Positions 1,911-56,938 of a stretch of DNA of 64,000 bases are shown piece by piece; the stretch's first letter is position 1; each line of letters opens with the position of its first letter. The stretch spans positions 2,650 to 66,649 of the forward strand of contig JBNKJB010000012.1 of NCBI GenBank assembly GCA_050290965.1, written 5' to 3'. Source of the stretch: Sulfurimonadaceae bacterium (GTDB taxonomy: Bacteria > Campylobacterota > Campylobacteria > Campylobacterales > Sulfurimonadaceae). A model generated the notes under the pieces. That model did not search any database, had not been told where the DNA came from, and was given only the letters and a program-made list of their open reading frames with translations. The position numbers and the translations under genes were made by a program.

Positions 1911-3151
1911 AAAAAGTCTATTTCAAAACTTTTGGATGCCGTACCAACATGTTTGATTCGCAAGTCATGATGAGTGCACTTAAAGCGTTTGAAATTACAC
2001 AAAATGAGCAGGAAGCAGACATTGTAATTCTTAATTCTTGTACCGTTACCAATGGTGCCGACACCACAGTTCGCAGCTATATTTCGCATCTTGAAAAACA
2101 TTCCAATGCCCGGATCTATCTTACTGGTTGCGGTGCGCATACCAAGGGTGCGTCACTTTTTGAGAGCGAGCGGGTTTTTGGAGTGTTTGGTCAAAGTGAA
2201 AAACAGCGTATTGATACACTGCTCAAAAACGAGACCCGTTTTTATGAACCTGGTGATCTGAAATTTGTAGATAACACCATTGTTTCGGAATTTGTCGGTA
2301 AAAGCAGGGCGTTTATTAAAATTCAAGAGGGGTGTAATTTTCGCTGTAGCTACTGCATTATTCCCTATGTCCGTGGAGATTCGCGTTCATTGGATGAAGA
2401 AAATATTTTAGAACAGGTACGCATTTTAGCATCTAACGGTTTTGGCGAGTTTATTTTAACCGGCACCAATGTGGGCAGTTATGGCCAGGGTGAAAAACGT
2501 TCGCTTGCCGGATTAATGAAACGTATGAGTATGATCCGTGGGGTACGGCGTATTCGTATTGGATCACTTGAACCAATCCAAATCAATGACGAATTCAAAG
2601 AGATTTTAGACGAGCCGTGGCTTGAGCGGCATTTACATGTAGCGATTCAGCATGCATCACAAGAGATGCTGCGTATTATGAACCGACGTAATCGCATTGA
2701 ACATGATCTGCTTCTTTTTAATGAACTTTCTCAAAAGGGATTTGCTTTGGGAACAGATTTTATTGTTGGTCATCCTGGAGAAACTGATGCCTTGTGGGAT
2801 GAGGCAATGCGCAACCTGCGCCAGATGCCGCTGACGCATCTGCATGCGTTTACTTACTCTAAACGCGATGGCACGCCCGCATCGAATATGAAAAATCAGG
2901 CGGATGGTGCTGCATCAAAACAGCGTATGCTACAGCTTCAAGAGCTGGTAGATGCCAATAATTTAGCATTTCGAAACCATGTTACAATACCCCTGGAAGT
3001 ACTTGTTGAGAGCAAGAAAGATGATGCGTATTATGGATATGATCAGTTTTTTAATAAAATTCTTATTCAGAGTAAAGATGATATCCGTGGTGAATGGATG
3101 CAGTTTGATACGTACGACATTATGAAGGAGCATAATCGTGTTGAGCTCTAA
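1907..3151 (+). CDS. Radical-SAM methylthiotransferase of the MiaB/MtaB/RimO family (tRNA modification)
   Basis: N-terminal UPF0004 motif FKTFGCRTNMFDS and radical-SAM motif CNFRCSYCIIP. Length is 414 aa. It overlaps the upstream gene by 4 nt. Confidence 0.85.
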   Translation: MKKVYFKTFGCRTNMFDSQVMMSALKAFEITQNEQEADIVILNSCTVTNGADTTVRSYISHLEKHSNARIYLTGCGAHTKGASLFESERVFGVFGQSEKQRIDTLLKNETRFYEPGDLKFVDNTIVSEFVGKSRAFIKIQEGCNFRCSYCIIPYVRGDSRSLDEENILEQVRILASNGFGEFILTGTNVGSYGQGEKRSLAGLMKRMSMIRGVRRIRIGSLEPIQINDEFKEILDEPWLERHLHVAIQHASQEMLRIMNRRNRIEHDLLLFNELSQKGFALGTDFIVGHPGETDALWDEAMRNLRQMPLTHLHAFTYSKRDGTPASNMKNQADGAASKQRMLQLQELVDANNLAFRNHVTIPLEVLVESKKDDAYYGYDQFFNKILIQSKDDIRGEWMQFDTYDIMKEHNRVEL

Positions 3152-4775
3152 AAAAAATCGACTGATTCTTTTGGTCTCTGCCGCAATTATTGCAGTATTG
3201 GTGCTGTTTGCATTGGTGCGTGATAATGCGCAACTCATAAGCTTGCAAGAGAGCCGGAGTCTTATTGCTTCAAAATCGGTTACAAAAGCGATTCATTCGG
3301 GCGAATACCTTTACATGTATTCCAAGCAGGGCGATTATAAAATTCCTTACAATCAAATTACTCCAGAAATGATCAAAACGCTCAAAGTTGATGTGTCGCA
3401 AGGCGGTGTCATTACTGCAATACTTGTTATTTTAATCCTCTTACTTGGCGTGGCTTCGTTTTTGTTTATATGGTGGCAGAAGCAAGGGGTTCAAGCACCA
3501 AAAACCAAAATTGTCACACCTGCAAAAGAAACAAGCAGTGAAGCTATAGTTCCTGTACGTTCCAATGTCAGTTTTTCTGATATTGGCGGTATTAGCGATG
3601 TCAAAGAGGAACTTGAAGAGATTATTGATTTTCTCAAAAAACCAAAACGCTATCTTAGTTTTGGTGCGCGTATGCCACGCGGGGTGCTTTTGGTAGGGCC
3701 TCCTGGTGTGGGTAAAACCATGATTGCCAAAGCTGTTGCCGCCGAAGCGGACGTACCGTTTTTTTATCAAAGTGGGGCATCCTTTGTACAGATTTATGTA
3801 GGGATGGGTGCCAAACGGGTACATGAGCTTTTTAGTGCTGCTAAACGCAATGCACCTTCAATTATTTTTATTGATGAAATTGATGCCGTGGGTAAAAAAC
3901 GCGACGGCAATCGCAATGATGAGCGCGAAGGCACACTAAATCAGCTTCTTACCGAGATGGATGGATTTGAAGAAAACAGCGGGGTTGTTGTTGTGGCTGC
4001 AACCAATAACATTGAAGTCATGGATGCTGCTTTGTTGCGCGCGGGCCGTTTTGATCGTCGTATTTTTGTAGATTTGCCAACACCTCGTGAGCGTGAAGCC
4101 ATTTTGGGAAAATATCTGCGTCATATACCCAATGATGTCAAGCTTGCGGATGTAGCGCATATTACGGTAGGTTTTAGCGGTGCGGCACTTGCTGCGCTGG
4201 TTAATGAAGCAGCGTTGCTCTCATTGCGTCAGCATGAATTGCAAGTGACGATGGAGCATTTTCATGCGGTTAAAGAGAAAGTGATGTTTGGCAAGAAAAA
4301 AGTACAAATTGTCACATCCGAGCAAAAACGCTACCGTGCGCGTTATCAGGCAGCCAAAGCGTTGGTGGCAACGTGGTTTGACCTACCGTATGAAAAGATA
4401 GCATTAACTTCTGATAACTTTAATCCACCCGTAGGTCAGCCGCTTTTGCGTCATGAGATAACGGCGCGGATTCAGATGCATTTAGCGGGTATGGCAGCGA
4501 GTGATATGGAGTTTGGAGAACATGCTACCAATGTGCAAAACGATATCTCAGAGGCAAGAGAACTGGCCGCACAGATGATAGATGATTATGCTATGGGTAC
4601 GTCACTGATGCCGTGTGATGAAGAGAAAGCAATACTGCTTGATGCCTTATATGACGAAACCAAAAAACTCTTAAGCGGTAAAGATCTGATTTTAGAAAAA
4701 ATAGAGGCTATTTTGATGGAGTATGAGAGCATTTCAAAAGCCTTGGTGAAAAAGACAATCGGTGAAGTTTTATAG
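3138..4775 (+). CDS. FtsH-like membrane AAA+ ATPase paralog with a degenerate metalloprotease site
   Basis: Two N-terminal TM helices, Walker A GPPGVGKT, Walker [10 protein letters not shown] and second region of homology [22 protein letters not shown]. The position of the M41 HEAGH zinc motif reads YQAAK (nt 4344-4358). Confidence 0.8.
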
Positions 4776-5274
4776 CGGATTTTCGCTACGTGATGAAGCG
4801 CATTTTTTTGAACCCTATTTGAAAAAAAGCGATTACACGGTAGCAGGTTTTAGTTATGGTGCTATTAAAGCACTCTTACATGTAAGCCGTACTCATATGC
4901 GCATTGATACGTTGCAACTCTTTTCGCCTGCTTTTTTTCATGACAAAGATGATGCTTTTAAACGTCTTCAGATAATGAGCTATAAGAACAATTCACAGCG
5001 TTATCTAAAGCATTTTATCCAAGGATGCTTTGCACCATATCCAACGCGAGATATTGAGCATGGTATGCATGATGCAACGCAACTTACAGAGCTGTTAGAG
5101 TTTCAATGGGACGCTAAAATGCTTAAAGCATTATGTGAACGAAATATTGAGATAGAGGTCTTTTTAGGGGGCAAAGACACCATTATCAATGCAGTAGAGG
5201 CCAAAGCTTTTTTTCTGCCTTATGCCACCACTTATTATTATAAACATGCCAATCATTTTTTATTAGAGGAGTAA
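4762..5274 (+). CDS. bioV: Small alpha/beta-hydrolase, BioV-like pimeloyl-ACP methyl ester esterase candidate
   Basis: 170 aa with nucleophile elbow GFSYG and later GGKD and HANHF, which could be the Asp and His of a catalytic triad. It sits directly after the FtsH paralog, as I recall for H. pylori BioV. Confidence 0.5.
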   Translation: MKFYSGFSLRDEAHFFEPYLKKSDYTVAGFSYGAIKALLHVSRTHMRIDTLQLFSPAFFHDKDDAFKRLQIMSYKNNSQRYLKHFIQGCFAPYPTRDIEHGMHDATQLTELLEFQWDAKMLKALCERNIEIEVFLGGKDTIINAVEAKAFFLPYATTYYYKHANHFLLEE

Positions 5275-5276
5275 TT

Positions 5277-5810: not shown

Positions 5811-5932
5811 AGCGTATTCCTGCGCTTGCAACCGTGTTGTTAATCTTCTTTAACATTACTTACATGTAATCTTTTAATGACGTAAAATTATTGACTTTTT
5901 ATATTATTTCCTATATGGTTGTATCAACAAAT

Positions 5933-11700: not shown

Positions 11701-11887
11701 ACCATTGGCAGTGAGTTCAGGAGCCGGTTCGGCAAGCCGTCATATTATTGGAACAACGGTTGTTGGCGGGATGATTGCAGCAACGCTTATTGGGGTTTTA
11801 TTTATTCCGCTTTTCTTTTATATTGTTGTTTGGGTTAAACAAAAATTTAGTCAAAAGAGCACGCATAACGCATTACATGTAAAGTAG
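8753..11887 (+). CDS. RND multidrug efflux transporter (AcrB/CmeB/HefC family)
   Basis: 1044 aa with 12-TM/two-loop architecture and N-terminus MFSRFFINRPIFATVIALII. Conserved TM4 reads GLVVDDAIIVIENIER. Confidence 0.95.
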   Translation: MFSRFFINRPIFATVIALIIVIAGIVSIQILPVKEYPAVAPPQINITAIYPGADAQTLSKTVSSTLEDAINGVEHMTYMTSTASPSGVLSMSVFFEVGTDVDQAKVDINNRVQLALVKLPQEVQRQGISVKERSPDMLKVAAFTSSNPEHDRLFISNYINVNILDELKRIKGVGDAIVFGQKDYAIRIWIDPAKLKHFNLSPADISNQVASQNGQYAAGSVGAEPLGEKVPLTYVVSSEGRLKTVKEFQNIIIRSNSDGSTLRLKDIARVELGSDAYYTDSKYSTKPMMPVGIFLSSGANALEVSDAVDKKLEELKASFPKGLDYALPYDTSIFVNASIQEVLKTLLEAIVFVTILIYLFLGNFRATIIPVLAIPVSIVGTFAGLYAAGFSINLLTLFGLILAIGLVVDDAIIVIENIERVLRTKKITVKEATVEAMKELSTPIVAIVLVMSAVFIPAALSGGFSGVMYKQFAMTIIMAVVISGIVALTLTPALCAIFLKEHEEEPIWPIRKFNQFFDWSTTIFLGFTRQTIKLWAFSLLLFGGLLFTTYATMQKIPSGLVPSEDKGVLLVIMNMMPATSLSESVKIADGIENVFLNHKDINATAAIMGLDLTTFAYKTDAGIMFVNLKPWEERTLPNQSAQALAGQFFGQMMQNKDAFVIPVNPPPIRGMSMTGGFDMWVQDRTGGDLQTLNEYAQQIVAEANNDPRITGSRTSLNTNVPQYTLKVDREKAKSMGVSLKDIYATLQSTFGQGYINDFNLYGRTFHVNIQADSEFRSRKDNYKDVFVRSSNNELIPLSALVDVKRVVNASVIQRFNMFNAANITGNPGAGYTSDDANKAIEEIAKRILPEGYSLAWAGTTYQEKQLEAKGNYASIYAAIFIFLILAALYESWSIPMAVILSIPFAILGAAIAVWLRGLEADVYFQVGLVTLVGLSAKNAILIVEFAMDKRRSGMSLLEATIEAARLRFRPIVMTSLAFIVGTLPLAVSSGAGSASRHIIGTTVVGGMIAATLIGVLFIPLFFYIVVWVKQKFSQKSTHNALHVK

Positions 11888-11898
11888 TTTACATGTAA
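11873..11898. repeat. Two TTACATGTAA palindromes 16 bp apart, spanning the RND gene stop codon
   Basis: Exact copies at 11873-11882 (codons LHVK then TAG) and 11889-11898. The second fills most of the 19-nt gap between the convergent RND and porin genes. Confidence 0.95.
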
Positions 11899-19771: not shown

Positions 19772-19827
19772 AAGAGCTACTTTTATTTTTGGCGTATTGT
19801 AACATGTTGAGTAGATCCATTTACACG

Positions 19828-40578: not shown

Positions 40579-40588
40579 TTACATGTAA
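40579..40588. repeat. TTACATGTAA palindrome between the lipoprotein genes and the ech operon
   Basis: Exact 10-mer, 28 nt after the LPP20-like stop. Confidence 0.95.
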
Positions 40589-43807: not shown

Positions 43808-44126
43808 GCGTGTCTATAATGACATTCAGGAATTTTATGATCCCCGTGCATGGCATTTTTTGACAATAAACGGGATTGATGCGGGTGATGAAGGTGTGAT
43901 TTTGCAATGGATCTTTTCGCAGTATGGACATAAAGATATGATTGTAATATTTGAGCTTACATGTAACTATGAAAGCAGGGTGCCTTCGATGGTAACACTG
44001 ATTCCTTCGGCATTTTTGAGTGAGCGCGAAGTGGTGGATATGTTTGGCTTACATGTAGAAGGTGCCACACCGGGACTCTACCTTGATAACGACTCTAGAC
44101 CGTCACCGTTACGGAGAAATTCATGA
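43779..44126 (+). CDS. echD: Ech-type hydrogenase small accessory subunit (EchD/NuoC-like)
   Basis: 115 aa, in the position of echD between the small and large subunit genes. SEREVVDMFG resembles the NuoC C-terminal motif. Confidence 0.6.
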   Translation: MMQKINTTLERVYNDIQEFYDPRAWHFLTINGIDAGDEGVILQWIFSQYGHKDMIVIFELTCNYESRVPSMVTLIPSAFLSEREVVDMFGLHVEGATPGLYLDNDSRPSPLRRNS

Positions 44127-45208
44127 AAAAAACCGTTGAAATTCCTTTGGGTTCGCAGCATATTGCGTTGCTTGAGCCGGTACGCTTTCGTTTTGAATGT
44201 GAGAATGAGACCATTATTGGTGTTGATGCCGATGTGGGTTTTGTGCATCGGGGTGTTGAAAGGGCCTGTACTAGTAATTTTGAGTATAAACAAGTGGGCT
44301 ATGTTGTGGCAAGGGTGTGCGGATTGTGTGCCATTACCCACTCGCTCTCCTACACCCTGGCAGTCGAAAAACTGCTGGAGCTTGAGCTCAATATGCGCAT
44401 TAAATATTTACGAATACTTATGGTAGAACTTGATCGCATTCATTCGCACATGCTTGCTTTGGCGCATACTGCCGAAAATGCAGGCTTTGAAGCACTTTTT
44501 ATGCAGGTGATGAATGATCGGGAACTGGTTATGGATATTCAAGAGTCCATTAGCGGTAATCGCATTCAGTTTGATTATATTGCTATTGGAGGTGTCAACC
44601 GTGATTTGAGCGCAGAAAGTGAAGCACTCCTGCGTAAAAATTTGGGGCTTTTAAAACCCAAGATTGATGCGCTGATGGAGCAGTTTGAAAACAACTGGAG
44701 CCTCTCGCTTCGTTATAAAAACATTGGTGTTCTTAGCCAAGATGATGCTTACATGTATAATGCATTAGGGCCACTAGCAAGAGCAGCAGGTGTCCCCACC
44801 GATGTGCGCAATGAGAGCAGTGATTTTCCCTATGAAGCTCTGGGTTTTGAGATGATACTTGAATCTACAGGCGACATTTATGCCCGAAATCGGGTGCGGC
44901 TTCGTGAAATATATAACTCGTTACAGATCTGTTTTAATATTGTTGATGGCCTCCCTGAAGGAGAACTGATGCAAAAAATCAAAGGAAAACCTAACGGTGA
45001 GGCTGTGGTGCGTTTGGAAGCACCGCGCGGAGAACTCTTTTATCTGATACGTGGCGATGGCAAAAATGTGCTGGAACGTGTACGGATTAAAACGCCTACT
45101 TTTTCGGGTATTCCCGCCATGATCGAAGTCTTTAAAGGCAGCCGTTACGCTGATGCTCCTGCGATTTTGGCATCGTTTGATCCTTGTATGTCATGTACGG
45201 CCAAGTGA
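44123..45208 (+). CDS. echE: Ech-type (group 4) [NiFe] hydrogenase large subunit
   Basis: N-terminal Ni-Fe motif RVCGLCAITHS and C-terminal DPCMSCTAK. The protein ends 3 residues after the last Cys, so there is no cleavable extension. Confidence 0.9.
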   Translation: MKKTVEIPLGSQHIALLEPVRFRFECENETIIGVDADVGFVHRGVERACTSNFEYKQVGYVVARVCGLCAITHSLSYTLAVEKLLELELNMRIKYLRILMVELDRIHSHMLALAHTAENAGFEALFMQVMNDRELVMDIQESISGNRIQFDYIAIGGVNRDLSAESEALLRKNLGLLKPKIDALMEQFENNWSLSLRYKNIGVLSQDDAYMYNALGPLARAAGVPTDVRNESSDFPYEALGFEMILESTGDIYARNRVRLREIYNSLQICFNIVDGLPEGELMQKIKGKPNGEAVVRLEAPRGELFYLIRGDGKNVLERVRIKTPTFSGIPAMIEVFKGSRYADAPAILASFDPCMSCTAK

Positions 45209-45632: not shown

Positions 45633-46901
45633 ATGCGTTTTGGTTTTATGATTTTTGTTTTTGTTTTTGCTCTGGTAGCATGGAAGTTTGTTGAACAACA
45701 AGCGCGCATTGCACAGGGAGACGTGCAAATAAGAAAAACCCTTCCCATGAATATTGCACTTGAAAAAGTTGAAGCACGAACCTATCTTGATCGTATACGA
45801 GATGCCATGCATATGCAGCAATTGCTGCCAAATTCTATGCTAGAGTCTGCGGCACAAGCCCATGCTAATTATCTTTTGTTTAATAATATCTCTAGCCACA
45901 ACGAAACACAAGGGCTTCATCATTTTACAGGTGTAACACCAGCAGATCGGGCGTTTCATGCCGGGTATTTATCGTCTCATGTCAGCGAGAACCTTTCAAC
46001 TAAAAATCCTAGTGCAGAGCGTTCTATGGATGGACTTTTTTCTGCTATTTATCATAGATTTGGTTTTTTGAGCCCTGATATTGATGAAATTGGCATAGGA
46101 ATTACACAAGATCAAAATAATAGTGACAAAAGTGTTTTTGTTTATCTGATGGGTCATGCACAGCTTAATAAGCTCTGTGATGCAAAAGATTTTAGCAGCA
46201 ATGGCAATTATGTCTATAAGGTTTGTAAGGATGAAAAATTTCGTATTAAAAAAAGCCTTTTTAGCACGGCGCTTAATGATAGTAAGCGTGAGAACCCAAA
46301 AATAATTTTTTATCCGTATGACAATCAACAAAATATCGTGCCTGCATTTTATGCAGAAGATCCCGATCCGCTACCTGATTATGAAGTGAGTGGCTTTCCT
46401 ATTAGTATTGAATTTAATGATTATTTTTTTGATGATGTGAAACTGCTCTCTTTTAGGCTTTATATGCAAGACACGGAGATCAGCGATGTGCGATTGATGG
46501 ATGAACATAATGATCCCAATCAAAAGTTGAAACACAATCAGTATGCGCTTTTTCCATTAAAAAGACTCGAATATGACACGCAGTATCGTGCTGAAGTTAT
46601 CTATAGATCCAGGCAAAAGACAGAGACGCTTGTGTGGCATTTTCAAACGCAAAAGTTTCAACAGCCTTTGCATATTATTACACAAAAAGAAGAGACTCTA
46701 AATTTAGAGGACACTCAAGAACAGGTAATCTATTTTCGTCCGCTTAATGCTTCTGAGTTGCTTTTAAATTTTAAATTTCCCAGAAGTGTTGATGTTGATT
46801 TTATTGATTACAATACCATCAAACTCCACTTTCAATCGGATGCAACAAAAACATTTGATATTGTCTCTGATCAGCGACGCTTACATGTAAGCGTAAAATA
46901 A
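45633..46901 (+). CDS. Membrane-anchored or secreted CAP/SCP-domain protein
   Basis: N-terminal hydrophobic helix. AAQAHANYLL..SHNE and the GHAQ region resemble the SCP/CAP fold. Its ATG immediately follows the echF stop codon. Confidence 0.5.
   Translation: MRFGFMIFVFVFALVAWKFVEQQARIAQGDVQIRKTLPMNIALEKVEARTYLDRIRDAMHMQQLLPNSMLESAAQAHANYLLFNNISSHNETQGLHHFTGVTPADRAFHAGYLSSHVSENLSTKNPSAERSMDGLFSAIYHRFGFLSPDIDEIGIGITQDQNNSDKSVFVYLMGHAQLNKLCDAKDFSSNGNYVYKVCKDEKFRIKKSLFSTALNDSKRENPKIIFYPYDNQQNIVPAFYAEDPDPLPDYEVSGFPISIEFNDYFFDDVKLLSFRLYMQDTEISDVRLMDEHNDPNQKLKHNQYALFPLKRLEYDTQYRAEVIYRSRQKTETLVWHFQTQKFQQPLHIITQKEETLNLEDTQEQVIYFRPLNASELLLNFKFPRSVDVDFIDYNTIKLHFQSDATKTFDIVSDQRRLHVSVK
46877..46894. repeat. 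18-bp perfect palindrome ACGCTTACATGTAAGCGT (extended copy of the iterated motif)
   Basis: Lies in the last codons of the CAP-domain CDS (RLHVSVK, stop at 46899-46901). Confidence 0.95.
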
Positions 46902-47617: not shown

Positions 47618-49300
47618 TTGCGATATTTCGTACTGCTTTTGGCTTGCCAACTTATTGCTGCGCCGCTTCCGCTCTATTTTTCGGGTAATGAACAATTTAG
47701 TGATCGTGAGTTGTATGAGGGAATCGGGCTAAATCTTCCCTATTTTTATCAGTTTTGGCGTAGTGAACCGGCTTTGGAACCCTCACGCAGTGGGCTCTAT
47801 GCAACAACCTTGCAGGAGTTTTACAAAAGCCGTGGTTTTTACCATGCTAAAGTGCATGAAATCGTGAACAAAGATGCCATACGTTTTGCAATAAGTGAAG
47901 GTCCTGAAGTTATTATTGACGATGTCACGGTTGTTTCAAGGCTGGATGTAAGCAACGATATCCAAAGTAAAGTCGAAGAGCGTTTTGATGCGGCAACGTT
48001 TGTAGAGGATAAAAAGCGTATTTTAAAACGTGCTTATGATCACGGGCACTGCAATGCAACACTCAATTCCAAGGCATGGATTGACAGAGAAAAAAACAGA
48101 GCCTATCTGCTTTTTGAGCTGACACGCGGCGAGCAGTGCCGTTTTGGCCCTATACATGTAACAACCGATGAGACGCTTGCGCCTTGGCTGGCCAAATCTT
48201 TTTTGCGCTACAAAGAAAACGATCCGTTTTCAAGTGAAAAAATCCGCCAGAGTTATGACATGCTTTATGCACAATCGGGTATTGCCAAAGCCAATATTGA
48301 ACTTGAAGAGCATAACGGATCAGTTGTTCCGACAACCTTACATGTAAGTGTGCGTGAAGATCCCGTACGCTTTGAAGGTGGTGTAGGCTATAACAGTGAT
48401 GAAGGTTTTGTAATTCAAGGTGGTATTAAACATCGCAATCTTTTTGGAGATCTTCGTACCCTTGGGCTAGAGGGGCGATACTCACCCATTCGTCAGGAGA
48501 TTAAAAGCACCTTCACCATGCCACTGCCCGATCATAATCTTTTAGGCACCATCTTGGGTTATAAAAATGAGCGCTTTGACGGCTATAAAGAGCGTAGCCG
48601 CTATCTAAAGCCTTATCTGCAGCAATATGATCAGCCGCACTCTTATAACGAAGCCATTTTGATTGATGAGGCCAAAACGTACGACAGTAGTGACGAGGCA
48701 CTTTTTCCTGAAAATACGCTCTTTGTAACATCGTTGCAATTGGGATGGAAATTTGATGTGCGAGATCACTTGCTAGAACCAACACGCGGATACTACCTTT
48801 TTGCCGAAGTACAAGGCTCTAAAAGCTCCGTAATCTCCGATGCCACTTATATGAAAGCCCGAGTTGGCGGCGCACGCATTTTTTCCTATCACGATCATGT
48901 TTTTGGCCTGAAAGCGCATTTAGGTTCCATTCGTCGCTACGAAGGCGATTTGCCATCATCATACCGTTTTTATGCCGGAGGGATCAACTCCAACCGTGCC
49001 TATACCTATCGTTCTCTTGGGCCAAGTAATGATAATGGTGATCCCATTGGATTTAATGCGCTTTTTGAGGGCACTGCCGAATATCGTTACGCCATCTATA
49101 ACGAATTAAGAGGGGTTGTTTTTAGCGATGTTACGCTGATTGGGCAAGAGTATCTTCCCGATCAAAACAAAGCTTATACGGCTGTGGGGGTGGGACTACG
49201 CTATAGCACTCCCATTGGTCCGCTAGGCATTGATGTGGGAATGGATGTTGAAAATCCTTCGCAATATGCAGTGCATTTTCATATTGGAGAGCTTTTTTGA
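47618..49300 (+). CDS. tamA: BamA/TamA-family outer-membrane protein (TamA-like)
   Basis: TTG start, signal peptide, POTRA-like N-terminus and an Omp85 barrel ending HFHIGELF. Paired with a TamB-like gene. Confidence 0.7.
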   Translation: MRYFVLLLACQLIAAPLPLYFSGNEQFSDRELYEGIGLNLPYFYQFWRSEPALEPSRSGLYATTLQEFYKSRGFYHAKVHEIVNKDAIRFAISEGPEVIIDDVTVVSRLDVSNDIQSKVEERFDAATFVEDKKRILKRAYDHGHCNATLNSKAWIDREKNRAYLLFELTRGEQCRFGPIHVTTDETLAPWLAKSFLRYKENDPFSSEKIRQSYDMLYAQSGIAKANIELEEHNGSVVPTTLHVSVREDPVRFEGGVGYNSDEGFVIQGGIKHRNLFGDLRTLGLEGRYSPIRQEIKSTFTMPLPDHNLLGTILGYKNERFDGYKERSRYLKPYLQQYDQPHSYNEAILIDEAKTYDSSDEALFPENTLFVTSLQLGWKFDVRDHLLEPTRGYYLFAEVQGSKSSVISDATYMKARVGGARIFSYHDHVFGLKAHLGSIRRYEGDLPSSYRFYAGGINSNRAYTYRSLGPSNDNGDPIGFNALFEGTAEYRYAIYNELRGVVFSDVTLIGQEYLPDQNKAYTAVGVGLRYSTPIGPLGIDVGMDVENPSQYAVHFHIGELF

Positions 49301-52185
49301 TGCGGCTCTTGATTCATATACTTCATTACGTTGTTATTATCCTCAGCATCCTTGTTGTGGCCGCATTGCTTTTTGCATACCATCCACGCTCGCTTAAATT
49401 TGTGGCGCAGCAGCTACAAGAGAATGATATTATCGCGTTTACGCGTGTTGAAGGCTCTTTGGCATCGGGAGTCACGTTTTATGATCTTAGTTATGATCAT
49501 GATGCTTTGAGCGCAGCGTATCTTGACGTAGACTACAACATTCTTTCGCTCTTATCGGGCACCTTGCAAATGAATCGCGTTGTTATTAAAAATGCACGCG
49601 TGATGCTTTTAGCGTTTCAAGATGATGCCAATGCCAGCAATGAAGCATTCTCATTGCCTTTTGGTATTCATGTTAAAAGCGCACACATTCAAGACCTGCA
49701 GCTTATCGATACCTTGCGTTATGGTATCAGTGTACTTGCAGATGATGTGAGGATAACTCCCAATATCACCATAAGTGCCAAAACATTGCGAGACGGGCGC
49801 TTTGATCTTAACACATCCACCCCCTTACATGTAGATATTGGCGGTAGCAATATTCGTTTTGATAACGCATTACATGTAAAGGCATTAAAAGCGGATGGAA
49901 CAATAGATCATAATGCCTTACATGTAAGCGGTACAATTGCGAAAAATCGCTTTGAGGGCAGGGGAAATATACGCTATAACCCTAGCTACGTAGAGACACT
50001 AACACCGCATGTTTCATTGCCGCCATCACTAAATCTCAACAAGATATCGGCGGATATGTCACAGGTTTCTATTAGTACTATGGTGCCTGATCTGTTTTTA
50101 CGTAATGATGCCAATCTCTCACTCCAGCACATTGCTGCTACGGCGGAGTATCGTTATGTGGATTCTAATGTAACACTGAAGCTGCATCATTTGTTGGAAA
50201 CATCAGATATTGGCATTGATATATTGCATAATATTAACATAGGTTTTGATGCCGCAGTTGCAGACACACTCCATGCAACACTACAGCATCCTACAAGGCC
50301 GCTGCCTCTTAAAGATTTTGATGCCGATGTACTCTATAAAGAGGGCGCTTTTGGCGCTATGGTGCGTTCGCAAGGCCATCATCTGGATCTTAATAGCAGC
50401 GACTTAAACCGTATCCACTTTGATCTTGGAATTGATGATCTGAACCTTTCGGAGTTTGCAACACTTCCTGAAATTCTCTCCTCTTCAAGGCTAGATGCCA
50501 CGGCCAAAGGATACTACGACATCAACAGCAGTTTGTTGATGGGAACGCTCTATGCCAATGCCAAACACTCCAGTTTTGATGGGAATGTGTCGTATATTCA
50601 AGAGCATCTGGTTACGATGGGACATATTAGTACAGATGGTAATTCGCGCTTTTGGCAATCTTTGCCCTTGCGAAACATTGGCGGCGTCGATCTGGTTGCC
50701 GATATTGCCCCAACACATAAGATGCTTTATATTAACTCCGAAGAGTTCCATACCACACTCTTTCAAAAAGAGCATAAAATTGAAGGATGGGGGGCTTTGG
50801 CAACCACGGCATTTGATCTTAGCGGTAGCGTTGATGATGGCAATACCACGCTGCAACTTCATAGCAGCATCGGATCACTCTACACCCTTGCTGAAAGTTT
50901 GGTTGATCTTAATCTTAGTGAGAATCAAGTTTTTGACATGGGTGTTGAACTTAATAGCACCATTGCTATTGATGAGGGTATTCGTATTGATGTTGATATG
51001 CTGCTGCCGTGGTATTTGGCTAAAGTTGATGCTGAGAGCTATCACTACGGTACCAATGCCCAACTTGGATTGCGTTATAGCAATGGCGCGTATACTTTGG
51101 AGCATTATGACGTTGATTATGAGGGGTATAAACTTTTTGCCCATCGCCCCTCCTTGATTACGTATGATAATGATGCCCTACGGCTTCACCCTTTGTGGCT
51201 CAATGATGAGATAGCAATCAAAGGGGCATACACCTTTAAAGAGAAAACACTTTTGCTTAATGCAGATAGTGATGCTTTTCATTATAAAGGTGATGAAGGC
51301 GAGATTGAAGCGGCGTTACATGTAAGGTTAAACTATGATGCCAATGTCACCCAAATTGATGGTGATATTGAGATAAAAAAAGCATTAATCACTTATGAAG
51401 CACCTTCGGATAAAGTGGTTAAGGATGATGATATTATCGTGATTCAAGATGTTAAAGCACCGCTAAGTTCTCCGCTTGAGATCAGCGTACGCGTCCATGC
51501 TACACAACCTTTGCACTATAAAATTAAAAGCGTTGATCTTACCTTTGTTCCCGATATCACTATTTGGAAAGAGCGCGAACATAATCTGGAGCTTTTAGGA
51601 TGGATTTATGCCGATAAAGGGTGGATTTATAACGGCAGCAGCGAATTTGCACTCCAACATAGCGAAATCTATTTTAGCGGAGGCTCAACAATAGATCCGC
51701 TTTTAAATTTGCATCTGCTTTATACTATTGATAACAAATTTATTGACATCTACGCCACGCATACCCTGCATTCACCGGTATTTTTGTTTACCTCATCGCC
51801 TGCTATGAGCCAAAGCGATATTATGAGCTATATTCTCTTTGGCACACCGGCATCATCGAGTTTTGAGAGTAATGAAGGCGGTTCAACCAGTATTAATGCG
51901 GCCAATATTGTATTTGGTACCGGACTTAAAGAGATGATTGGCGATACCACAGGCTTGCGGGTGGATACTTTGAATCTGATTAGTAAAGCAGATGGCGGCG
52001 TGGGATTTGAAGTGGGAACACGCATCAACCGCGATTTGCGTGTGGTGCTGAAAAATGATGATATTTTTACGCTGGTGCTGCAGCTTTCGCTTAACAGCAA
52101 TTTGCGTGTAGATGTTGATGTCAAAGAAACCGGACAAGGTGTGAATCTGATCTATGTTCAAGAGTTTAAAGATTGGTTACAATAA
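49297..52185 (+). CDS. tamB: TamB-like translocation and assembly module protein (DUF490 C-terminus)
   Basis: N-terminal TM anchor, 962 aa of beta-rich sequence, and a C-terminal DUF490-like SQSDIMSYILFGTPAS. 4-nt overlap with the tamA-like gene. Confidence 0.7.
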   Translation: MMRLLIHILHYVVIILSILVVAALLFAYHPRSLKFVAQQLQENDIIAFTRVEGSLASGVTFYDLSYDHDALSAAYLDVDYNILSLLSGTLQMNRVVIKNARVMLLAFQDDANASNEAFSLPFGIHVKSAHIQDLQLIDTLRYGISVLADDVRITPNITISAKTLRDGRFDLNTSTPLHVDIGGSNIRFDNALHVKALKADGTIDHNALHVSGTIAKNRFEGRGNIRYNPSYVETLTPHVSLPPSLNLNKISADMSQVSISTMVPDLFLRNDANLSLQHIAATAEYRYVDSNVTLKLHHLLETSDIGIDILHNINIGFDAAVADTLHATLQHPTRPLPLKDFDADVLYKEGAFGAMVRSQGHHLDLNSSDLNRIHFDLGIDDLNLSEFATLPEILSSSRLDATAKGYYDINSSLLMGTLYANAKHSSFDGNVSYIQEHLVTMGHISTDGNSRFWQSLPLRNIGGVDLVADIAPTHKMLYINSEEFHTTLFQKEHKIEGWGALATTAFDLSGSVDDGNTTLQLHSSIGSLYTLAESLVDLNLSENQVFDMGVELNSTIAIDEGIRIDVDMLLPWYLAKVDAESYHYGTNAQLGLRYSNGAYTLEHYDVDYEGYKLFAHRPSLITYDNDALRLHPLWLNDEIAIKGAYTFKEKTLLLNADSDAFHYKGDEGEIEAALHVRLNYDANVTQIDGDIEIKKALITYEAPSDKVVKDDDIIVIQDVKAPLSSPLEISVRVHATQPLHYKIKSVDLTFVPDITIWKEREHNLELLGWIYADKGWIYNGSSEFALQHSEIYFSGGSTIDPLLNLHLLYTIDNKFIDIYATHTLHSPVFLFTSSPAMSQSDIMSYILFGTPASSSFESNEGGSTSINAANIVFGTGLKEMIGDTTGLRVDTLNLISKADGGVGFEVGTRINRDLRVVLKNDDIFTLVLQLSLNSNLRVDVDVKETGQGVNLIYVQEFKDWLQ

Positions 52186-53403: not shown

Positions 53404-56057
53404 ATACACCGCTCAAAAAACCGCGATCAACGGCACTTATTGTATGGACCATCCCTCTATTGGCACTGCTTATGGCCGGCTGGATGCTTTATAAATTTTA
53501 TGCGGATCGCGGTGGTGAAATTGTCGTCTCGTTTAATGATGGCAGTGGATTATTAGAGCGTAAAACATTGCTCAAATACAAGGGAATCGTCGTTGGAAAC
53601 GTCAAAAAGATAGAACTCCACCCCTCAGACATTTCACGGGTTAACGTTACCTTTAATGTTTCAAAAAATGCTATAGCCGCAATAGCGCGCAAAGGCAACA
53701 CGTTTTGGAAGGTTAAACCGCGTATTACGCTCACTGAAATATCAGGTTTGGAAACCATTGTTGGCGGCGTGTATGTCGAAGCGTATCCTGCAGAAAAATC
53801 GATTGAAGCACTAATGAAGCTTCCTGCAAAATATAAATTTGAAGCCTCCGATCACAAACCAGAAGACCGTCTGCAACCCGGATTAAAGCTTTTTTTGGAA
53901 GATGAAAGCGGTTCTTTTGGCGTTGATACCCCCATTATGTACAAAAAATTTATTGTCGGTCACGTCATTGAGCGAGAGCTTGAGAGAGATAAAGTGCGCT
54001 ACACGGTGCATATTGATAGCGCCTACAAAGATCTTGTTAAACAAGCAAGCCATTTTTGGGGTATTGAGAGTATTAATGTCAAAGCGGGGCTCTCTGGCAT
54101 TAAAGTCAAAGTAGACTCACTAGCCACTTTGGTAGCAGGAGGTATCACTTTTGATTCTCCCGCTACGTCACCTTCGGTTGCTGCAAGTATTGATGAAAAT
54201 AAAACCTTTCAGCTTTATAGTACAAAAGAAGATATTGACTATGATCCGCACCACTTAATCTTGCGTACCAAGAGCTCCTTTTCGCTTGAAGCGGGGCTGA
54301 GCGCTATTTATTATAAGGGTGTTGAAGCGGGCAAAATTGAGAGCGTCACGTATATTCCTGAAACCGATACAAGCGAATATCGCATTTTGCTTAAAAAAAG
54401 TTTTGCAAGCGTCATTAAAAACGGCGTTTACTTCTGGGCTGTTGAACCCCAGGTTTCACTGCAAGGAGTCTCAGGGTTAGATGCCATTACCAAAGGCTCT
54501 TATATCGCTTTTGAGGGGAGTGATGAAGGCCAACAGGAGTCTTATGATCTGCATACCATTCCTCCGCAGCGTGAGGGTAAAAAGATAACACTGCATGCGT
54601 CAAACATTTCAGGGCTTAAATCGGGTGCACCGGTTTTTTACAAAAGCTTTGAGGCGGGAATGATTAGCAAAGTAGCTCTTGATAGTGATAACAAAAACGT
54701 ACGTATTGATACCGTAATTGATCCAAAATATGCATCACTAATTAATACAACAACGCTTTTTTATAAACACAGTGCCATCGAAGCGGAGATTACATTTTCA
54801 AAAGTATCGCTGCATGCCGGCACACTTCCTGAGATCATCCAAGGAGGTATCAGTTTTGAAACGCTTGATGACAAGGCTGCACAAGGACGCAATGTTTTTA
54901 CACTTCTTGATGACAATAAAGCTTTAGAGAAAGAAAAATATTATCGCTCTGGAGGCAAACAGCTTACACTCTATGCAAAAAGTGCTCGTAATATTGGTGC
55001 AGGAACACCATTGCTTTATCATCAGTTTAAAGCGGGTGAGGTGATGAATGTGGCGTATGAAAGCATTAATGATCGTATTCGCATTGATCTGTATGTTGAT
55101 AAACGCTTTGCCAAAAAAGTACGTGCGTCAAGCCGTTTTTACAAACTCAGCGGTGCGGAACTTAACGTTGCTTTTCCAAAGATTGAACTAAAACTAGAAT
55201 CATTACAATCACTGTTTGAAACTGCTATTGCTTTTGATACGCCTGATGAAAGCACAAATGAGAATAAAAAATCCTATCTTCTTTATGAAGATCATGCCAC
55301 AGCATTTGATAATGCATACCGTGCACAGCTTTACCTTGATGAGACGTTTGGTCTTGTGGAGGGGAGTGCGATTCACCATAAAGGCATCACTATTGGCACC
55401 ATTGAAAAAATTGATCTTGAGAACAATCAGGTTGTAGCCTTAATGAAAATAGAGCAAGCCTATAAAAAGCTGATGACTGCCGATGCAAGCATCTCCCTTG
55501 AATCATTCAAAATGGGGCTTTCAGGCATTAAAAATCCTGAGGCACTTGTTAATGGTTCTTCTTTACATGTAAGCCCGGGAGTTGCGCTGCAATCAGGCAA
55601 AGCGTATCATCTTCAAAATATTTTGACGCATCAAAATCAATTGCGTCAAGGCTTGCGCGTTGTTGTTTCAGCAGACAGACGCAGTTCATTAGCTATGGGA
55701 TCGCCACTTTTTTACCGACAGGTTCAAATTGGTGATATTGAAGAGGTGCGCCTAAGCGACAATGCTACCCAGGTAGAATTTTTGCTTTATATCCAGCCTT
55801 GCTATGCGCATCTAATTCGTAGCAATTCGCATTTTTATAATGCTACGGCTTTAGGAATGGAGTTAAGCTTAAGTGGTCTTAAAATTGAAACAGAGACACT
55901 TGAAACAATGATATCAGGCGGCATTGCTGTGGTAACACCTGATGATTATGGTAATGTGGCAAATGAGATGCAGGTATTCAAGCTTTTTGATAAACCTCAA
56001 AAAGCGTGGTTAACGTGGTTTCCAAAATTGAAAAGTACGAATCCCATGTGTCAGTAG
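53400..56057 (+). CDS. Multi-MCE-domain intermembrane transport protein (LetB/YebT-like, PqiB family)
   Basis: N-terminal TM helix plus seven recognisable MCE repeats: LKYKGIVVGNV, IMYKKFIVGHV, AIYYKGVEAGKI, PVFYKSFEAGMI, PLLYHQFKAGEV, AIHHKGITIGTI and PLFYRQVQIGDI. 885 aa. Confidence 0.8.
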   Translation: MNTPLKKPRSTALIVWTIPLLALLMAGWMLYKFYADRGGEIVVSFNDGSGLLERKTLLKYKGIVVGNVKKIELHPSDISRVNVTFNVSKNAIAAIARKGNTFWKVKPRITLTEISGLETIVGGVYVEAYPAEKSIEALMKLPAKYKFEASDHKPEDRLQPGLKLFLEDESGSFGVDTPIMYKKFIVGHVIERELERDKVRYTVHIDSAYKDLVKQASHFWGIESINVKAGLSGIKVKVDSLATLVAGGITFDSPATSPSVAASIDENKTFQLYSTKEDIDYDPHHLILRTKSSFSLEAGLSAIYYKGVEAGKIESVTYIPETDTSEYRILLKKSFASVIKNGVYFWAVEPQVSLQGVSGLDAITKGSYIAFEGSDEGQQESYDLHTIPPQREGKKITLHASNISGLKSGAPVFYKSFEAGMISKVALDSDNKNVRIDTVIDPKYASLINTTTLFYKHSAIEAEITFSKVSLHAGTLPEIIQGGISFETLDDKAAQGRNVFTLLDDNKALEKEKYYRSGGKQLTLYAKSARNIGAGTPLLYHQFKAGEVMNVAYESINDRIRIDLYVDKRFAKKVRASSRFYKLSGAELNVAFPKIELKLESLQSLFETAIAFDTPDESTNENKKSYLLYEDHATAFDNAYRAQLYLDETFGLVEGSAIHHKGITIGTIEKIDLENNQVVALMKIEQAYKKLMTADASISLESFKMGLSGIKNPEALVNGSSLHVSPGVALQSGKAYHLQNILTHQNQLRQGLRVVVSADRRSSLAMGSPLFYRQVQIGDIEEVRLSDNATQVEFLLYIQPCYAHLIRSNSHFYNATALGMELSLSGLKIETETLETMISGGIAVVTPDDYGNVANEMQVFKLFDKPQKAWLTWFPKLKSTNPMCQ

Positions 56058-56920
56058 CCGCGTAAAAAATAACCTACTTTATAGCGTATCAGCGTTTTTT
56101 GCTTTGGCCTTGGATAGCGGCTATACGCATATTCAATGGTCTCTTTTGTCGTATCGTCAAGAATATAAAAACCGCTGCGCTGAATAAATTTGATATCAGA
56201 AATATCACCATTGGGATAAAGGTAAAACTCAACGATGTTATACTCATTCACACGTAAGTTATTGGGCAGATTGACGCTTCCAACCCGGGTTAAAACTTCT
56301 TGCGTAATGCGACGCATCACTTCTTGATTATCAAGCAGATATTTCTGTTCGCCTTCACTCAGTTTGCCAAAAACATCTCCATAAGCCTCTTTGAGGTTTT
56401 GAGCAATACGGCTTTCACGTCGTGTGGATGTTTTTTCCTTATCGGTATTCTCATCCGTTTTGACCTCTTTAGAAAGAAAATTGTAAAGCCGGTTATGCTC
56501 TTTTGGCGTGCTTTGATTTAGCTCTTCATCATTTTTTGCTTGCAGCGGTATATAAGGTTTTAAAGAGGGTATCGGTTCTGTTTTTGGCTGAGGTTTCGGC
56601 TTGGGCTGAGGTTTTGGTGGATTAATGGGTTTAGGAGTTGTTGGCTCTTTTGAAGGCGTAACAAAAGATTGTTTTACCAGTTCATTAAGCTGCTTGCCTT
56701 TGGGCATTGGTGGCGCAATCTTGGGATTTTTAACGCTATTTTTCTCAAAAGACTCTTTGAGTGCTTTAGGATTCTCTTTGAGCGATACTTTGATGCGATG
56801 CGGTTCACTCTCTTTAGGTTTTTCCAAAGTGGCAATATGCGATCCAAAAAGCAAAAATAGCAAAATGAGCAACATATGAAAGAGCAGGGCAATGATAAAA
56901 GCAGCTTGTGAACGACTCAT
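56051..56920 (-). CDS. tonB: TonB-family energy transducer
   Basis: N-terminal TM helix, Pro/Lys-rich spacer PKPINPPKPQPKPKPQPK, and a C-terminal TonB domain. The start is taken at MSRSQAAF (56920), preceded by AAAGGA. Confidence 0.8.
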   Translation of the reverse strand: MSRSQAAFIIALLFHMLLILLFLLFGSHIATLEKPKESEPHRIKVSLKENPKALKESFEKNSVKNPKIAPPMPKGKQLNELVKQSFVTPSKEPTTPKPINPPKPQPKPKPQPKTEPIPSLKPYIPLQAKNDEELNQSTPKEHNRLYNFLSKEVKTDENTDKEKTSTRRESRIAQNLKEAYGDVFGKLSEGEQKYLLDNQEVMRRITQEVLTRVGSVNLPNNLRVNEYNIVEFYLYPNGDISDIKFIQRSGFYILDDTTKETIEYAYSRYPRPKQKTLIRYKVGYFLRGY

Positions 56921-56928
56921 GATATCCT

Positions 56929-56938
56929 TTACATGTAA
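56929..56938. repeat. TTACATGTAA palindrome abutting the tonB RBS
   Basis: The minus strand reads TTACATGTAAAGGATATCATG. Confidence 0.95.

Follow-up and report, generated by a model that had tools for sequence, protein, structure and literature searches.

A hyper-abundant 10-letter palindrome, probably maintained at the DNA level, in one uncultured clade of Sulfurimonadaceae

The 64-kb stretch of DNA analysed here (the window) is part of a Sulfurimonadaceae MAG. Within its genes and in the gaps between them it carries the 10-letter perfect palindrome TTACATGTAA in 21 exact copies, where 0.12 are expected from dinucleotide shuffles (shuffle maximum 1), and the core of this word, TACATGTA, 33 times against an expectation of 1.19 (shuffle maximum 5) (Table 1). 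These are the top 10-mer and the top 8-mer of the window, at ~390 and ~52 times their respective order-3 Markov expectations. The inner hexamer ACATGT occurs 39 times, with only 6 occurrences outside TACATGTA where ~20 are expected. The original prediction had given the coordinates of the 21 exact copies, all of which we recovered, together with 33 cores and about six hexamers outside the word, and these counts also stand. Its 12 variants do all deviate solely at an outermost base; 11 of them were correctly placed, and the one given as 44759 is a typing error for 44749. The hyper-abundance of TTACATGTAA is confirmed as a real observation.

Table 1. Copies of the word and of its outer-base variants in the window (window coordinates; the word is palindromic and no strand is assigned to it)
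Form	Position	Location	Reading frame, relatives or structure
Variant TTACATGTAG	2633..2642	MtaB CDS	L-H-V
Variant TTACATGTAT	3311..3320	FtsH-like CDS	Y-M-Y; full word in frame would give TAA stop
Exact	4876..4885	BioV CDS	L-H-V
Exact	5860..5869	Intergenic	Upstream of MarR/RND efflux operon
Exact	11873..11882	RND permease gene, final codons (ALHVK*)	Hairpin 5' arm
Exact	11889..11898	Intergenic, between convergent genes	Hairpin 3' arm
Hairpin	11873-11898		10-bp stem, 6-nt loop
Variant GTACATGTAA	18152..18161	Sdh/Frd cytochrome b subunit CDS (-)	Y-M-Y, stop avoided
Variant TTACATGTAC	19515..19524	Exo_endo_phos CDS (-)	T-C
Exact	19828..19837	First codons of longest ORF 18998..19846 (-), or upstream region	
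Exact	19956..19965	Intergenic	10 bp upstream of 19975 start
Variant CTACATGTAA	20660..20669	YaeQ CDS (-)	L-H-V
Variant TTACATGTAT	24889..24898	Non-coding	Abuts GGDEF gene stop codon
Variant GTACATGTAA	26722..26731	AIRS-domain CDS	V-H-V
Exact	27163..27172	TruD CDS	LHVR; orthologous copy in L004
Exact	29763..29772	YchF CDS (-)	ITCK for relatives' conserved IACG
Exact	31628..31637	PepA CDS (-)	LTCN vs LECT/LECK; L004 orthologous copy, L011 one-off
Exact	34698..34707	CDS 34319..34756 (-)	FTCK vs relatives' FTVE; L004 orthologous copy
Exact	38228..38237	HpcH/HpaI-family CDS	LTCK; L011 orthologous copy
Exact	38242..38251	HpcH/HpaI-family CDS	LHVK vs relatives' CGVK
Hairpin	Copies 38228 + 38242		10-bp stem, 4-nt loop
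Exact	40579..40588	Intergenic	3' of LPP20 gene
Exact	43957..43966	Complex1_30kDa CDS	LTCN
Variant TTACATGTAG	44049..44058	Complex1_30kDa CDS	L-H-V
Variant TTACATGTAT	44749..44758	Complex1_49kDa CDS	Y-M-Y, stop avoided
Exact	46881..46890	CAP-domain CDS, 3' end	Centre of 18-bp perfect palindrome 46877-46894
Variant CTACATGTAA	47044..47053	Pentapeptide-repeat CDS	T-C-K
Variant ATACATGTAA	48152..48161	Omp85/TamA CDS	I-H-V
Exact	48338..48347	Omp85/TamA CDS	L-H-V
Variant TTACATGTAG	49825..49834	TamB CDS	L-H-V
Exact	49870..49879	TamB CDS	Word also exact at the orthologous site in L221 (40% identical TamB) and L011 (30%)
Exact	49918..49927	TamB CDS	L-H-V
Exact	51316..51325	TamB CDS	Word also exact at the orthologous site in L221 and L223
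Exact	55563..55572	MlaD/PqiB CDS	L-H-V
Exact	56929..56938	In longest ORF 56051..56959 (-), upstream of called start 56920	Probably non-coding

The excess does not fall to an observed/expected ratio (O/E) near 1 outside the window: the adjoining 17.6 kb of the same contig contain 6 further cores. In 148 kb of pooled clade DNA there are 57 exact copies against 0.26 expected. In the window and the pool the 10-mer is enriched 220–390-fold, and the density of the word in the clade is ~330–520 per Mb, or about one every 2–3 kb. It is present in six independent genome pieces of a deep clade (the window, L004, L153, L011, L221 and L223), with 3.6–7.4 cores per 10 kb at GC contents of 36–50%. Elsewhere in Sulfurimonadaceae, over ~1.3 Mb, the O/E is 1.2 for the core and 1.0 for its one-off neighbours, that is, they occur at chance, and no core is found in 22.8 kb of L228, the next TamB relative. 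A single deep, uncultured clade has TTACATGTAA as a highly iterated palindrome throughout the genome, with an invariant core TACATGTA and a weak Y/R extension. The literature searched contained no prior description of the word, in keeping with the original remark that no such word was known for Campylobacterota.

In the pooled, symmetrised flanks of the clade, T is found at −1 in 86%, Y at −2 in 77% and C at −3 in 33%, and the information decays gradually outward from the symmetric core. In the window the proposed flank extension is clear for the 5' Y (27/33) and weaker for the 3' R (20/33 on the + strand). One-off variants in the pooled DNA concentrate at the outermost bases (17 vs 1.1 expected), and the inner eight positions show no excess over chance (7 vs 6.9); in total there are 24 one-mismatch forms against ~8 expected, a ~3-fold excess. 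There is no cloud of near-miss copies around the 8-bp core (31 vs 42 expected), an absence that fits all-or-none enzyme recognition as well as uptake bias. Pairwise identity of the 50-bp flanks is 28.5%, with a maximum of 41%, compared with 28.1% at random sites; the flanks are unrelated and the word is therefore free-standing, not part of a dispersed repeat. Copies cluster at short range (4 gaps <60 bp, P = 0.013; 8 gaps <200 bp, P = 0.006). Closely spaced pairs form hairpins, without a T-run, between convergent genes both in the window and in L221, and L221 also has an extended palindrome of 28 bp.

When genes are called as longest ORFs, 17 exact copies are inside an ORF and the other 4 are intergenic. 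Since the copy at 56929 is upstream of a called start and that at 19828 lies within the opening 6 codons of an ORF starting with GTG, it is reasonable to divide the copies into 15 coding and 6 non-coding, as originally given. Non-coding DNA makes up ~4% of the window and is enriched 4–6 fold in the word. Copies occur in all usable frames, in genes on either strand and also in non-coding DNA. Most read L-H-V, and the most over-represented tripeptides of the window are LHV (5.2×) and TCK (8.6×). Leu-His-Val is spelled TTACATGTA in 16/17 cases (94%), compared with the 2.6% expected from codon usage. The three copies in the TAA-stop frame are exactly those without one outer base. Wordless relatives keep the LHVR of TruD through other codons; elsewhere residues conserved in relatives are swapped for those of the word (IACG to ITCK, LECT to LTCN, FTVE to FTCK, CGVK to LHVK). 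Orthologous 10-mers in outgroups are ~4.5 mismatches from the word, compared with 7.4 for random coding 10-mers. The word arises through point substitutions at already similar sites, and it acts at the DNA level, overriding codon choice and conserved amino acids and so altering protein sequences in the genes of these uncultured sulfur-oxidising bacteria. It is fixed and kept against codon preference, conserved residues and large genomic GC shifts, and there is therefore a DNA-level fixation bias for the perfect word.

Three of four window copies are kept in L004, compared with 4.3% of random 10-mers (P ~3e-4). Of the three TamB copies in the window, two recur exactly in L221, where the background rate is 0.8% (P ~2e-4), in a comparison at 30–40% protein and 45–52% nucleotide identity, and TamB copies are further common to L223 and L011. 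Orthologous copies even in TamB proteins this diverged mean that the system is old and actively maintained. It is very probable that the word is lineage-specific and maintained at the DNA level. This was the original reading: its lineage specificity agrees with the chance occurrence elsewhere in the family, and the drive, or binding or methylating activity, that it placed at the DNA level is supported by the override of codons and residues, the orthologous conservation and the random flanks.

Palindromes containing CATG or ACATGT had been said to be normally avoided, and ACATGT indeed has an O/E of 0.40 in relatives without the word, and of 0.65 in the clade after masking of the words. RCATGY hexamers are avoided family-wide (GCATGC 0.47), which suggests that restriction-modification systems of that specificity circulate. 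The word contains the sites of PciI (ACATGT), NspI (RCATGY) and NlaIII/HpyI (CATG), but whereas restriction targets are avoided, here the flanked 8–10-mer is the enriched unit.

Rare genome-wide "signature words" are known from Neisseria, Haemophilus and cyanobacteria, and this word is a new counterpart to them. Like HIP1 (GCGATCGC) and the alternate cyanobacterial iterated palindromes, it is short and perfectly palindromic, with an over-representation of tens to hundreds of times and hundreds of copies per Mb. As with HIP1, its copies fall in genes in any frame as well as in non-coding DNA, its inner site shows no enrichment apart from the word, and it is restricted to certain lineages; HIP1 copies are likewise conserved at orthologous positions (PMC5861425), and HIP1 one-off variants are likewise concentrated at the first and last base (PMC4390886). 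Unlike HIP1, the word belongs to a different phylum, Campylobacterota, and to one clade within a family rather than being phylum-wide; it is AT-rich, of 8–10 bp, with a CATG centre, where HIP1 is GC-rich with a GATC centre; it has no associated methyltransferase identified in clade DNA; and it clusters at short range within the 64 kb of the window. HIP1 is reported to have a periodicity of 10–90 kb. Perfect copies of the Neisseriaceae DUS (GCCGTCTGAA) and the Pasteurellaceae USS (AAGTGCGGT) are enriched 183× and 392×, compared with ~220–390× for the word, and their one-mismatch forms 3–6×, the USS value equalling the ~3× found here (PMC1939737). They too lie inside genes at amino-acid cost, are enriched in non-coding DNA, form hairpins downstream of operons as close pairs, are conserved at orthologous sites and are clade-specific; they are, however, asymmetric, and our word is a perfect palindrome with a putative role in uptake. 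REP, BIME and MITE elements are also palindromic and numerous, but they are 20–150 bp long, intergenic and have conserved flanks, whereas only 8–12 bp are common to the mostly intragenic copies here. Chi, KOPS and similar skewed oligomers, and parS, matS, SBS and NBS, resemble the word in being short and having a chromosome-wide role. Chi and KOPS are asymmetric, strand-skewed and few-fold enriched; the word is symmetric, >200-fold enriched and found every ~2–3 kb.

We favour, with a probability of roughly 0.4, the explanation that the word is a self-marking site, probably methylated, that spreads by biased DNA uptake or recombination. The site would be recognised by a resident sequence-specific activity that is symmetric (dimeric), most likely a methyltransferase paired with a reader of the site's methylated form, and would mark DNA as self. 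Fragments with the (methylated) word would be favoured in natural transformation, at uptake or at homologous recombination, and copies would in this way spread and persist by a molecular drive like that of DUS/USS, which has now been proposed for cyanobacterial HIP1 as well. Hairpin-forming close pairs may have been co-opted at operon ends. Methylated HIP1 raises transformation >100-fold (10.1101/2024.09.10.611283), and DNA-uptake genes co-vary with HIP1 abundance (10.64898/2026.06.24.733823). No methyltransferase, receptor or competence genes were found in ~165 kb of clade DNA, nor was a reader or writer protein of the word identified in the clade DNA available. It likewise counts against an uptake self-tag that DUS and USS are non-palindromic and that the copies of the word are clustered at short range, uptake sequences often being described as more evenly spaced. 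The RAATTY (CtsM) site of Campylobacter jejuni is a degenerate 6-mer, common in AT-rich DNA and not reported to be hyper-enriched, unlike the specific 10-mer enriched >200-fold here, whose methylation is a proposal. In its role, RAATTY is similar to what we propose: a palindromic self mark for transformation in the same phylum, read in its methylated form, such that only DNA methylated at this site is taken up (PMC10046745).

We consider it less likely that the word instead accumulated as a by-product of a methylation-linked repair ratchet with no role in DNA uptake, as in Elhai's model of HIP. A resident methyltransferase would mark the inner ACATGT or CATG, and methyl-directed nicking or mismatch repair would resolve nearby mismatches towards strands completing the extended site. 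The word has the hallmarks used for this argument in HIP1 (PMC4390886), with one-off variants confined to its two terminal bases, no excess of the inner hexamer outside the word, and a density that matches the lowest HIP values or falls slightly short of them. It is palindromic, the usual form of methyltransferase sites, and the family-wide avoidance of RCATGY points to circulating restriction-modification systems, but a search of the available clade DNA turned up no methyltransferase gene. There is no specific depletion of the deamination-type neighbour TATATGTA (3 vs 4.3 expected), so that Vsr-like single-position repair is not indicated. By our own calculation, conversion of one-off forms only would cap enrichment at ~3× the word length, far below the 220–390× of the 10-mer, and exact conservation of sites at 45–52% nucleotide identity needs continuous protection beyond their creation. 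Helicobacter and Campylobacter are not known to have MutS1/MutL, which counts against this repair model.

Less probable again is a selected chromosomal function, in which the word would be kept by ordinary natural selection, not drive, as the site of a nucleoid-associated or architectural protein, or as a hairpin or cruciform serving termination or domain organisation. Conservation of sites far above background is the argument of Xu et al. for HIP1, where it was read as selection of this kind and not as drive (PMC5861425). The gradual decay of information away from a symmetric core is as for a dimeric DNA-binding protein, and arrays of this palindrome apparently serve phages as operators, which means that proteins reading it exist; no candidate protein was identified. 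Architectural or occlusion sites such as parS, matS, SBS and NBS occur tens of times in a genome, rather than once every ~2–3 kb, and selection at hundreds of sites that replaces conserved housekeeping residues is hard to motivate. Short-range clustering and the hairpin pairs between convergent genes would suit this function, but the pairs have no T-run and most copies are single and intragenic.

It is most improbable that the copies belong to a longer dispersed REP/MITE-like mobile repeat, or that their excess comes from a protein motif, from codon usage or from assembly artefacts: against the extended palindromic flanks of some copies and the L-H-V encoded by most stand the random 50-bp flanks, the occurrence in all usable frames, both strands and non-coding DNA while relatives encode the peptides by other codons, the gap between predicted and observed use of TTACATGTA, and the presence of the same word in independent assemblies of different projects (NCBI MAGs, JGI and Logan).

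The 10-bp perfect palindrome TTACATGTAA (the word) occurs 21 times in the window, against 0.12 expected from dinucleotide-preserving shuffles, and its 8-bp centre TACATGTA (the core) occurs 33 times in 64 kb (~516 per Mb) against 1.19. They are the top 10-mer and the top 8-mer of the window, ~390-fold and 52-fold, respectively, above the order-3 Markov expectation. The bare inner hexamer, ACATGT, is found 39 times, with 6 lying outside the core where ~20 are expected. All 21 coordinates of exact copies in the original prediction match; its list of 12 variants stands save for one typographical slip, the sole error in it, the copy put at 44759 really starting at 44749. It had also been allowed that the copies might belong to a larger dispersed repeat. 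Alignment of the 50-bp flanks of the 33 copies gives 28.5% pairwise identity compared with 28.1% at random sites, so each copy is a short word in its own right and not a piece of something longer. These random flanks, together with the location of 27 of the 33 copies inside ORFs, rule out a mobile repeat of the REP or MITE kind.

The 27 ORF copies lie on both strands in unrelated housekeeping genes, including those of MtaB, an FtsH-like protein, BioV, an RND permease, fumarate reductase, TruD, YchF, PepA, Nuo-like subunits, TamA, TamB, PqiB and others. Six copies are non-coding and two more are at or before doubtful starts (19828, 56929), the non-coding share of the window being ~4%. Three reading frames are used, giving L-H-V or x-H-V (n = 17), T-C (n = 7) and Y-M-Y (n = 3). 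All three Y-M-Y copies are among those short of an outer base, and since the full word in that frame would create a TAA stop, it is the 10-mer that is favoured, an outer base being given up only where the coding frame demands it. In the window proteome, amino-acid frequencies predict 3.3 Leu-His-Val tripeptides and 17 are present; Thr-Cys-Lys, with 6 against 0.7, is over-represented more than any other tripeptide. The word thus measurably distorts proteins, which matters for analyses of evolutionary rate. Leu-His-Val is spelled TTACATGTA in 16 of 17 cases (94%), where codon usage predicts 2.6%. This difference, the three frames, the use of both strands and the non-coding copies rule out an origin in a protein motif or codon usage, and a peptide explanation is further ruled out by relatives that spell the same peptide with other codons.

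Two patterns are seen at the orthologous sites of wordless relatives. In the first, the same peptide is encoded by different codons, as in TruD, where LHVR is TTA CAT GTA AGA in the window and CTG CAT GTA CGA or similar in the relatives. In the second, the relatives have other conserved residues, which are replaced in the window to make the word (IACG to ITCK in YchF and LECT to LTCN in PepA; also FTVE to FTCK and CGVK to LHVK). The outgroup orthologous 10-mers are ~3–6 positions away from the word (mean ~4.5) compared with 7.4 for random coding 10-mers. Being already near to it, they indicate that words come by point substitution where few changes suffice, and not by insertion. These comparisons show a fixation bias toward the word at the level of DNA.

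The window corresponds to positions 211,475–275,474 of contig JBNKLV010000001.1 in MAG GCA_050292685.1. FolD-centred loci from GTDB species representatives place it in the Sulfurimonadaceae, near Sulfuricurvum. Only two of these loci are word-rich, L004 (a Sulfurimonadaceae bin, GC 50%) and L011 (Campylobacterota MAG135, GC 36%); no more than one core is present in any other Campylobacterota locus, most of which are from Sulfuricurvum or Sulfurimonas, or in any of the more distant taxa. A YchF-based metagenome scan supplied the word-rich L153, which with contig L148 was the addition among the matches listed. Two further pieces came from the nearest TamB homologues (38–40% identity): 22.9 kb of L221 (GCA_034659135.1) contain 16 exact copies, and 19 kb of L223 contain 7. 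L228, which follows them in TamB similarity (29% identity), has no word in 22.8 kb. When the window and the five word-rich pieces (the word clade, 148 kb) are pooled, the exact word is found 57 times, against 0.26 expected, and the core 76 times. For 1.3 Mb from other Sulfurimonadaceae, the observed/expected ratio (O/E) is 1.2 for the core and 1.0 for its one-off neighbours, and the lineage-specific character that had been proposed, with close relatives as its check, is borne out. In neighbour-joining trees the window falls together with L004 and L153, and L011 branches deep nearby. The databases hold no closer relatives in which stepwise gain or loss could be followed: the next TamB homologue is 40% identical, and the Logan contigs match the window genome at 100% identity.

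A patchy, mobile distribution is disfavoured, because all six clade pieces have exact copies at shared orthologous sites, in TamB and elsewhere. L148 is the exception. In this contig (1–9439) the ychF gene shares 97% identity with its counterparts on wordless Sulfurimonas-like contigs, and the 8 kb downstream is non-syntenic, with three exact words and genes for PPDK, a pyridine-nucleotide disulphide oxidoreductase, a P-type ATPase and DUF4010; either this stretch was transferred from the word clade or the metagenome contig is chimeric. Contigs L185 and L201 do not carry the same word, as their flanks differ (CTACATGTAG) and the copies form local hairpins. The word is a diagnostic signature of the clade that can be used in binning and can flag those of its contigs that are chimeric or were acquired horizontally.

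Between the window and L004, whose coding identity is 71.6%, three of four words are kept, compared with 4.3% of random 10-mers (P about 3e-4), even though their GC contents are 42% and 50%. A TruD site is common to L004 and L153 and absent from the window. The TamB genes are far more diverged (30–40% protein and 45–52% nucleotide identity, with 0.4–0.8% of 10-mers conserved). Even so, words stand in the same alignment columns, one in the window, L221 and L011, another in the window, L221 and L223, and two more in L221 and L223 (P between 2e-4 and 2e-2 per pair), and two of three window copies are kept against a background of 0.8%. Since these words are exact in the same columns despite the divergence, the system predates the split of the lineages and the sites are actively kept.

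In the pooled clade, one-off variants of the 10-mer number 17 at the outermost base, against 1.1 expected, and the other eight positions are at chance, with 7 against 6.9. The total of one-mismatch forms, 24 against ~8, is a ~3-fold excess equal to Bakkali's value for the USS uptake sequence, so that this statistic does not tell an uptake signal from an enzyme site. One-off variants of the core number 31 against 42 (O/E 0.73, P = 0.04) when the background model leaves the words out; with the words included, such neighbours had as a whole seemed 2-fold depleted. We read the deficit only as the lack of a cloud of near misses. A Vsr-type signature, the specific loss of the C-to-T, deamination-type neighbour TATATGTA, was rejected, that neighbour (3 against 4.3) not being singled out. 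Flank information falls outward, with T at −1 in 86%, Y at −2 in 77% and C at −3 in 33%. Copies cluster at short range, with 4 gaps below 60 bp (P = 0.013) and 8 below 200 bp (P = 0.006). Two of the close pairs are perfect hairpins between convergent genes, at 11873–11898 in the window after the RND permease and at 2588–2611 in L221 after an efflux operon, neither followed by a T-run; other pairs are intragenic.

Positions of longer palindromes, viral arrays and differently flanked cores
Locus	Positions	Feature	Context
Window	46877-46894	word within 18-bp perfect palindrome ACGCTTACATGTAAGCGT	overlaps 3' end of CAP-domain gene
L221	2585-2612	word within 28-bp perfect palindrome CCTTACATGTAAAGCTTTACATGTAAGG	between convergent genes
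L098	358-548	array of TTACATGTAA	IMG/VR viral locus
L105	3875-4095	array of TTACATGTAA	IMG/VR viral locus; mirrored in L092:10583-10803
L112	1204-1431	array of TTACATGTAA	IMG/VR viral locus; same contig as L121
L113	9480-9520	array of TTACATGTAA	IMG/VR viral locus
L128	915-955	array of TTACATGTAA	IMG/VR viral locus
L185; L201	3564-3583 and 2229 (L185); 1945, 5434 (L201)	TACATGTA with other flanks (TCTCTACATGTAGAGA; CTACATGTAG pair 12 bp apart)	local hairpins

To our knowledge, only a handful of short words occur at hundreds-fold beyond chance across bacterial genomes. The best-known palindromic one is the cyanobacterial HIP1, the purpose of which has been debated for 30 years. A HIP-type palindrome is the most over-represented octamer of its genome, at ~500–2500 copies per Mb (PMC4390886). 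TACATGTA, a palindromic top octamer, has a density within that range and resembles HIP1 also in its variation at outer positions, in an inner site that is not enriched alone and in sites conserved between genomes (PMC4390886, PMC5861425). However, HIP1, which is GCGATCGC, and the alternate HIPs described are cyanobacterial, and the clade word is TTACATGTAA in Sulfurimonadaceae, which makes the latter an analogue of HIP1 and not a member. Perfect copies of the uptake sequences USS and DUS are over-represented 183- and 392-fold, and one-mismatch forms 3- and 5.8-fold (PMC1939737). The clade word is like them in degree of enrichment (>100-fold for perfect copies with a smaller one-mismatch excess), in its cost in amino acids and in being enriched in non-coding DNA, and perhaps also in its hairpin pairs (PMC1939737). 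They are asymmetric 9–12-mers with a dedicated receptor (e.g. ComP), whereas it is a perfect palindrome, and no receptor candidate was identified in the clade DNA read. With sequence, symmetry and taxon all different, the word belongs to neither the HIP1 nor the DUS/USS family. Chi and KOPS are asymmetric and skewed by strand or replichore; a palindrome cannot be strand-skewed, so this is not a polar signal of their type. Restriction targets are avoided in the host, whereas the word is >200-fold enriched and only the bare hexamer is avoided. The original remark that palindromes containing CATG or ACATGT are usually avoided agrees with an O/E of 0.40 for ACATGT (0.47 for GCATGC) across the family and 0.65 (0.52) in the clade outside the word. 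In ~1.3 Mb of wordless loci (L002–L045, L141–L220) RCATGY is avoided relative to TCATGA (0.76) and CCATGG (0.82), as are GGATCC, CTCGAG and GGGCCC, a pattern consistent with circulating restriction systems of those specificities.

The word is best classed as an independent HIP/DUS-like word in a new phylum. We infer a reader or writer protein and a process that produces the fixation bias. HIP1 reportedly boosts natural transformation in a methylation-dependent way (10.1101/2024.09.10.611283) and co-varies with DNA-uptake genes (10.64898/2026.06.24.733823), and in Campylobacter jejuni, of the same phylum as the window, uptake is confined to DNA that has the palindrome RAATTY in methylated form (PMC10046745). 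By analogy with these reports we favour, at a probability of roughly 0.4, a reading in which the word would be a methylated self-tag of clade DNA and its copies would spread by biased uptake or recombination. Motif regular expressions on the ORFs of the window, L004, L011 and word-dense viral loci, and Pfam/NCBIfam searches of the window and locus proteins, found no methyltransferase or competence gene near the words; neither of these, nor a receptor gene, lies in the ~165 kb of clade DNA read. Words would alternatively be produced by a methylation-linked repair ratchet, which we consider unlikely, or be selected for an architectural role or as binding sites, which seems decidedly improbable; an artefact, a dispersed repeat or a peptide explanation is rejected, with a negligible chance left to it.

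Full-text literature searches found no description of the word, of an ACATGT-centred iterated palindrome, of an ACATGT methylome or of an uptake sequence in Sulfurimonas or Sulfurimonadaceae, in line with the original prediction that no such word had been described for Campylobacterota. We suggest tentatively that DUS, USS and HIP1 may here be joined by a fourth, independently evolved class of word for genome-wide self-recognition, the first from Campylobacterota, acting as a methylation-read palindromic uptake or recombination signal with a drive that rewrites conserved housekeeping residues. HIP-like systems would then be a general bacterial phenomenon and not a cyanobacterial oddity, and phylogenetic profiling could look for reader and writer proteins in a second lineage, unrelated to the first. 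An independent case is a natural replicate, AT-rich, CATG-centred and in another phylum. Its phylogenetic boundary is sharp, with word-rich and word-free genomes in one family; gene content across it could reveal the responsible methyltransferase, reader or competence component, and the comparison could test uptake bias, repair bias and selection as drivers of such words.

The scan of viral contigs for word pairs gave 59 loci, the dense ones being local intergenic arrays of 3–6 tight copies with short conserved flanks (e.g. CACTTTACATGTAAAG, five times). They resemble clusters of operators or iterons, local and distinct from the genome-wide dispersal in the window, and some phage DNA-binding proteins evidently read the palindrome. 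A gene for a CI/LexA-like repressor (Phage_CI_repr and Peptidase_S24) lies ~4.3 kb past the right end of the window (L226, 14773–15432); LexA is absent from many Campylobacterota. On the word-rich L153, a truncated ORF at 5739–6524 has an HsdM_N domain only and is apparently what is left of a type I restriction-modification system. In the wordless L228 (2945–6557), a gene for a 947-aa reverse transcriptase (RVT_1) adjoins an Abi_2-domain gene, the two being inserted among cobalamin biosynthesis genes and probably forming a retron- or Abi-type defence island. The window itself has two fumarate reductase/succinate dehydrogenase-like clusters within 10 kb (15374–18847 and 21131–24733), each with a flavoprotein, an Fe-S subunit and a cytochrome b or CCG-domain subunit.
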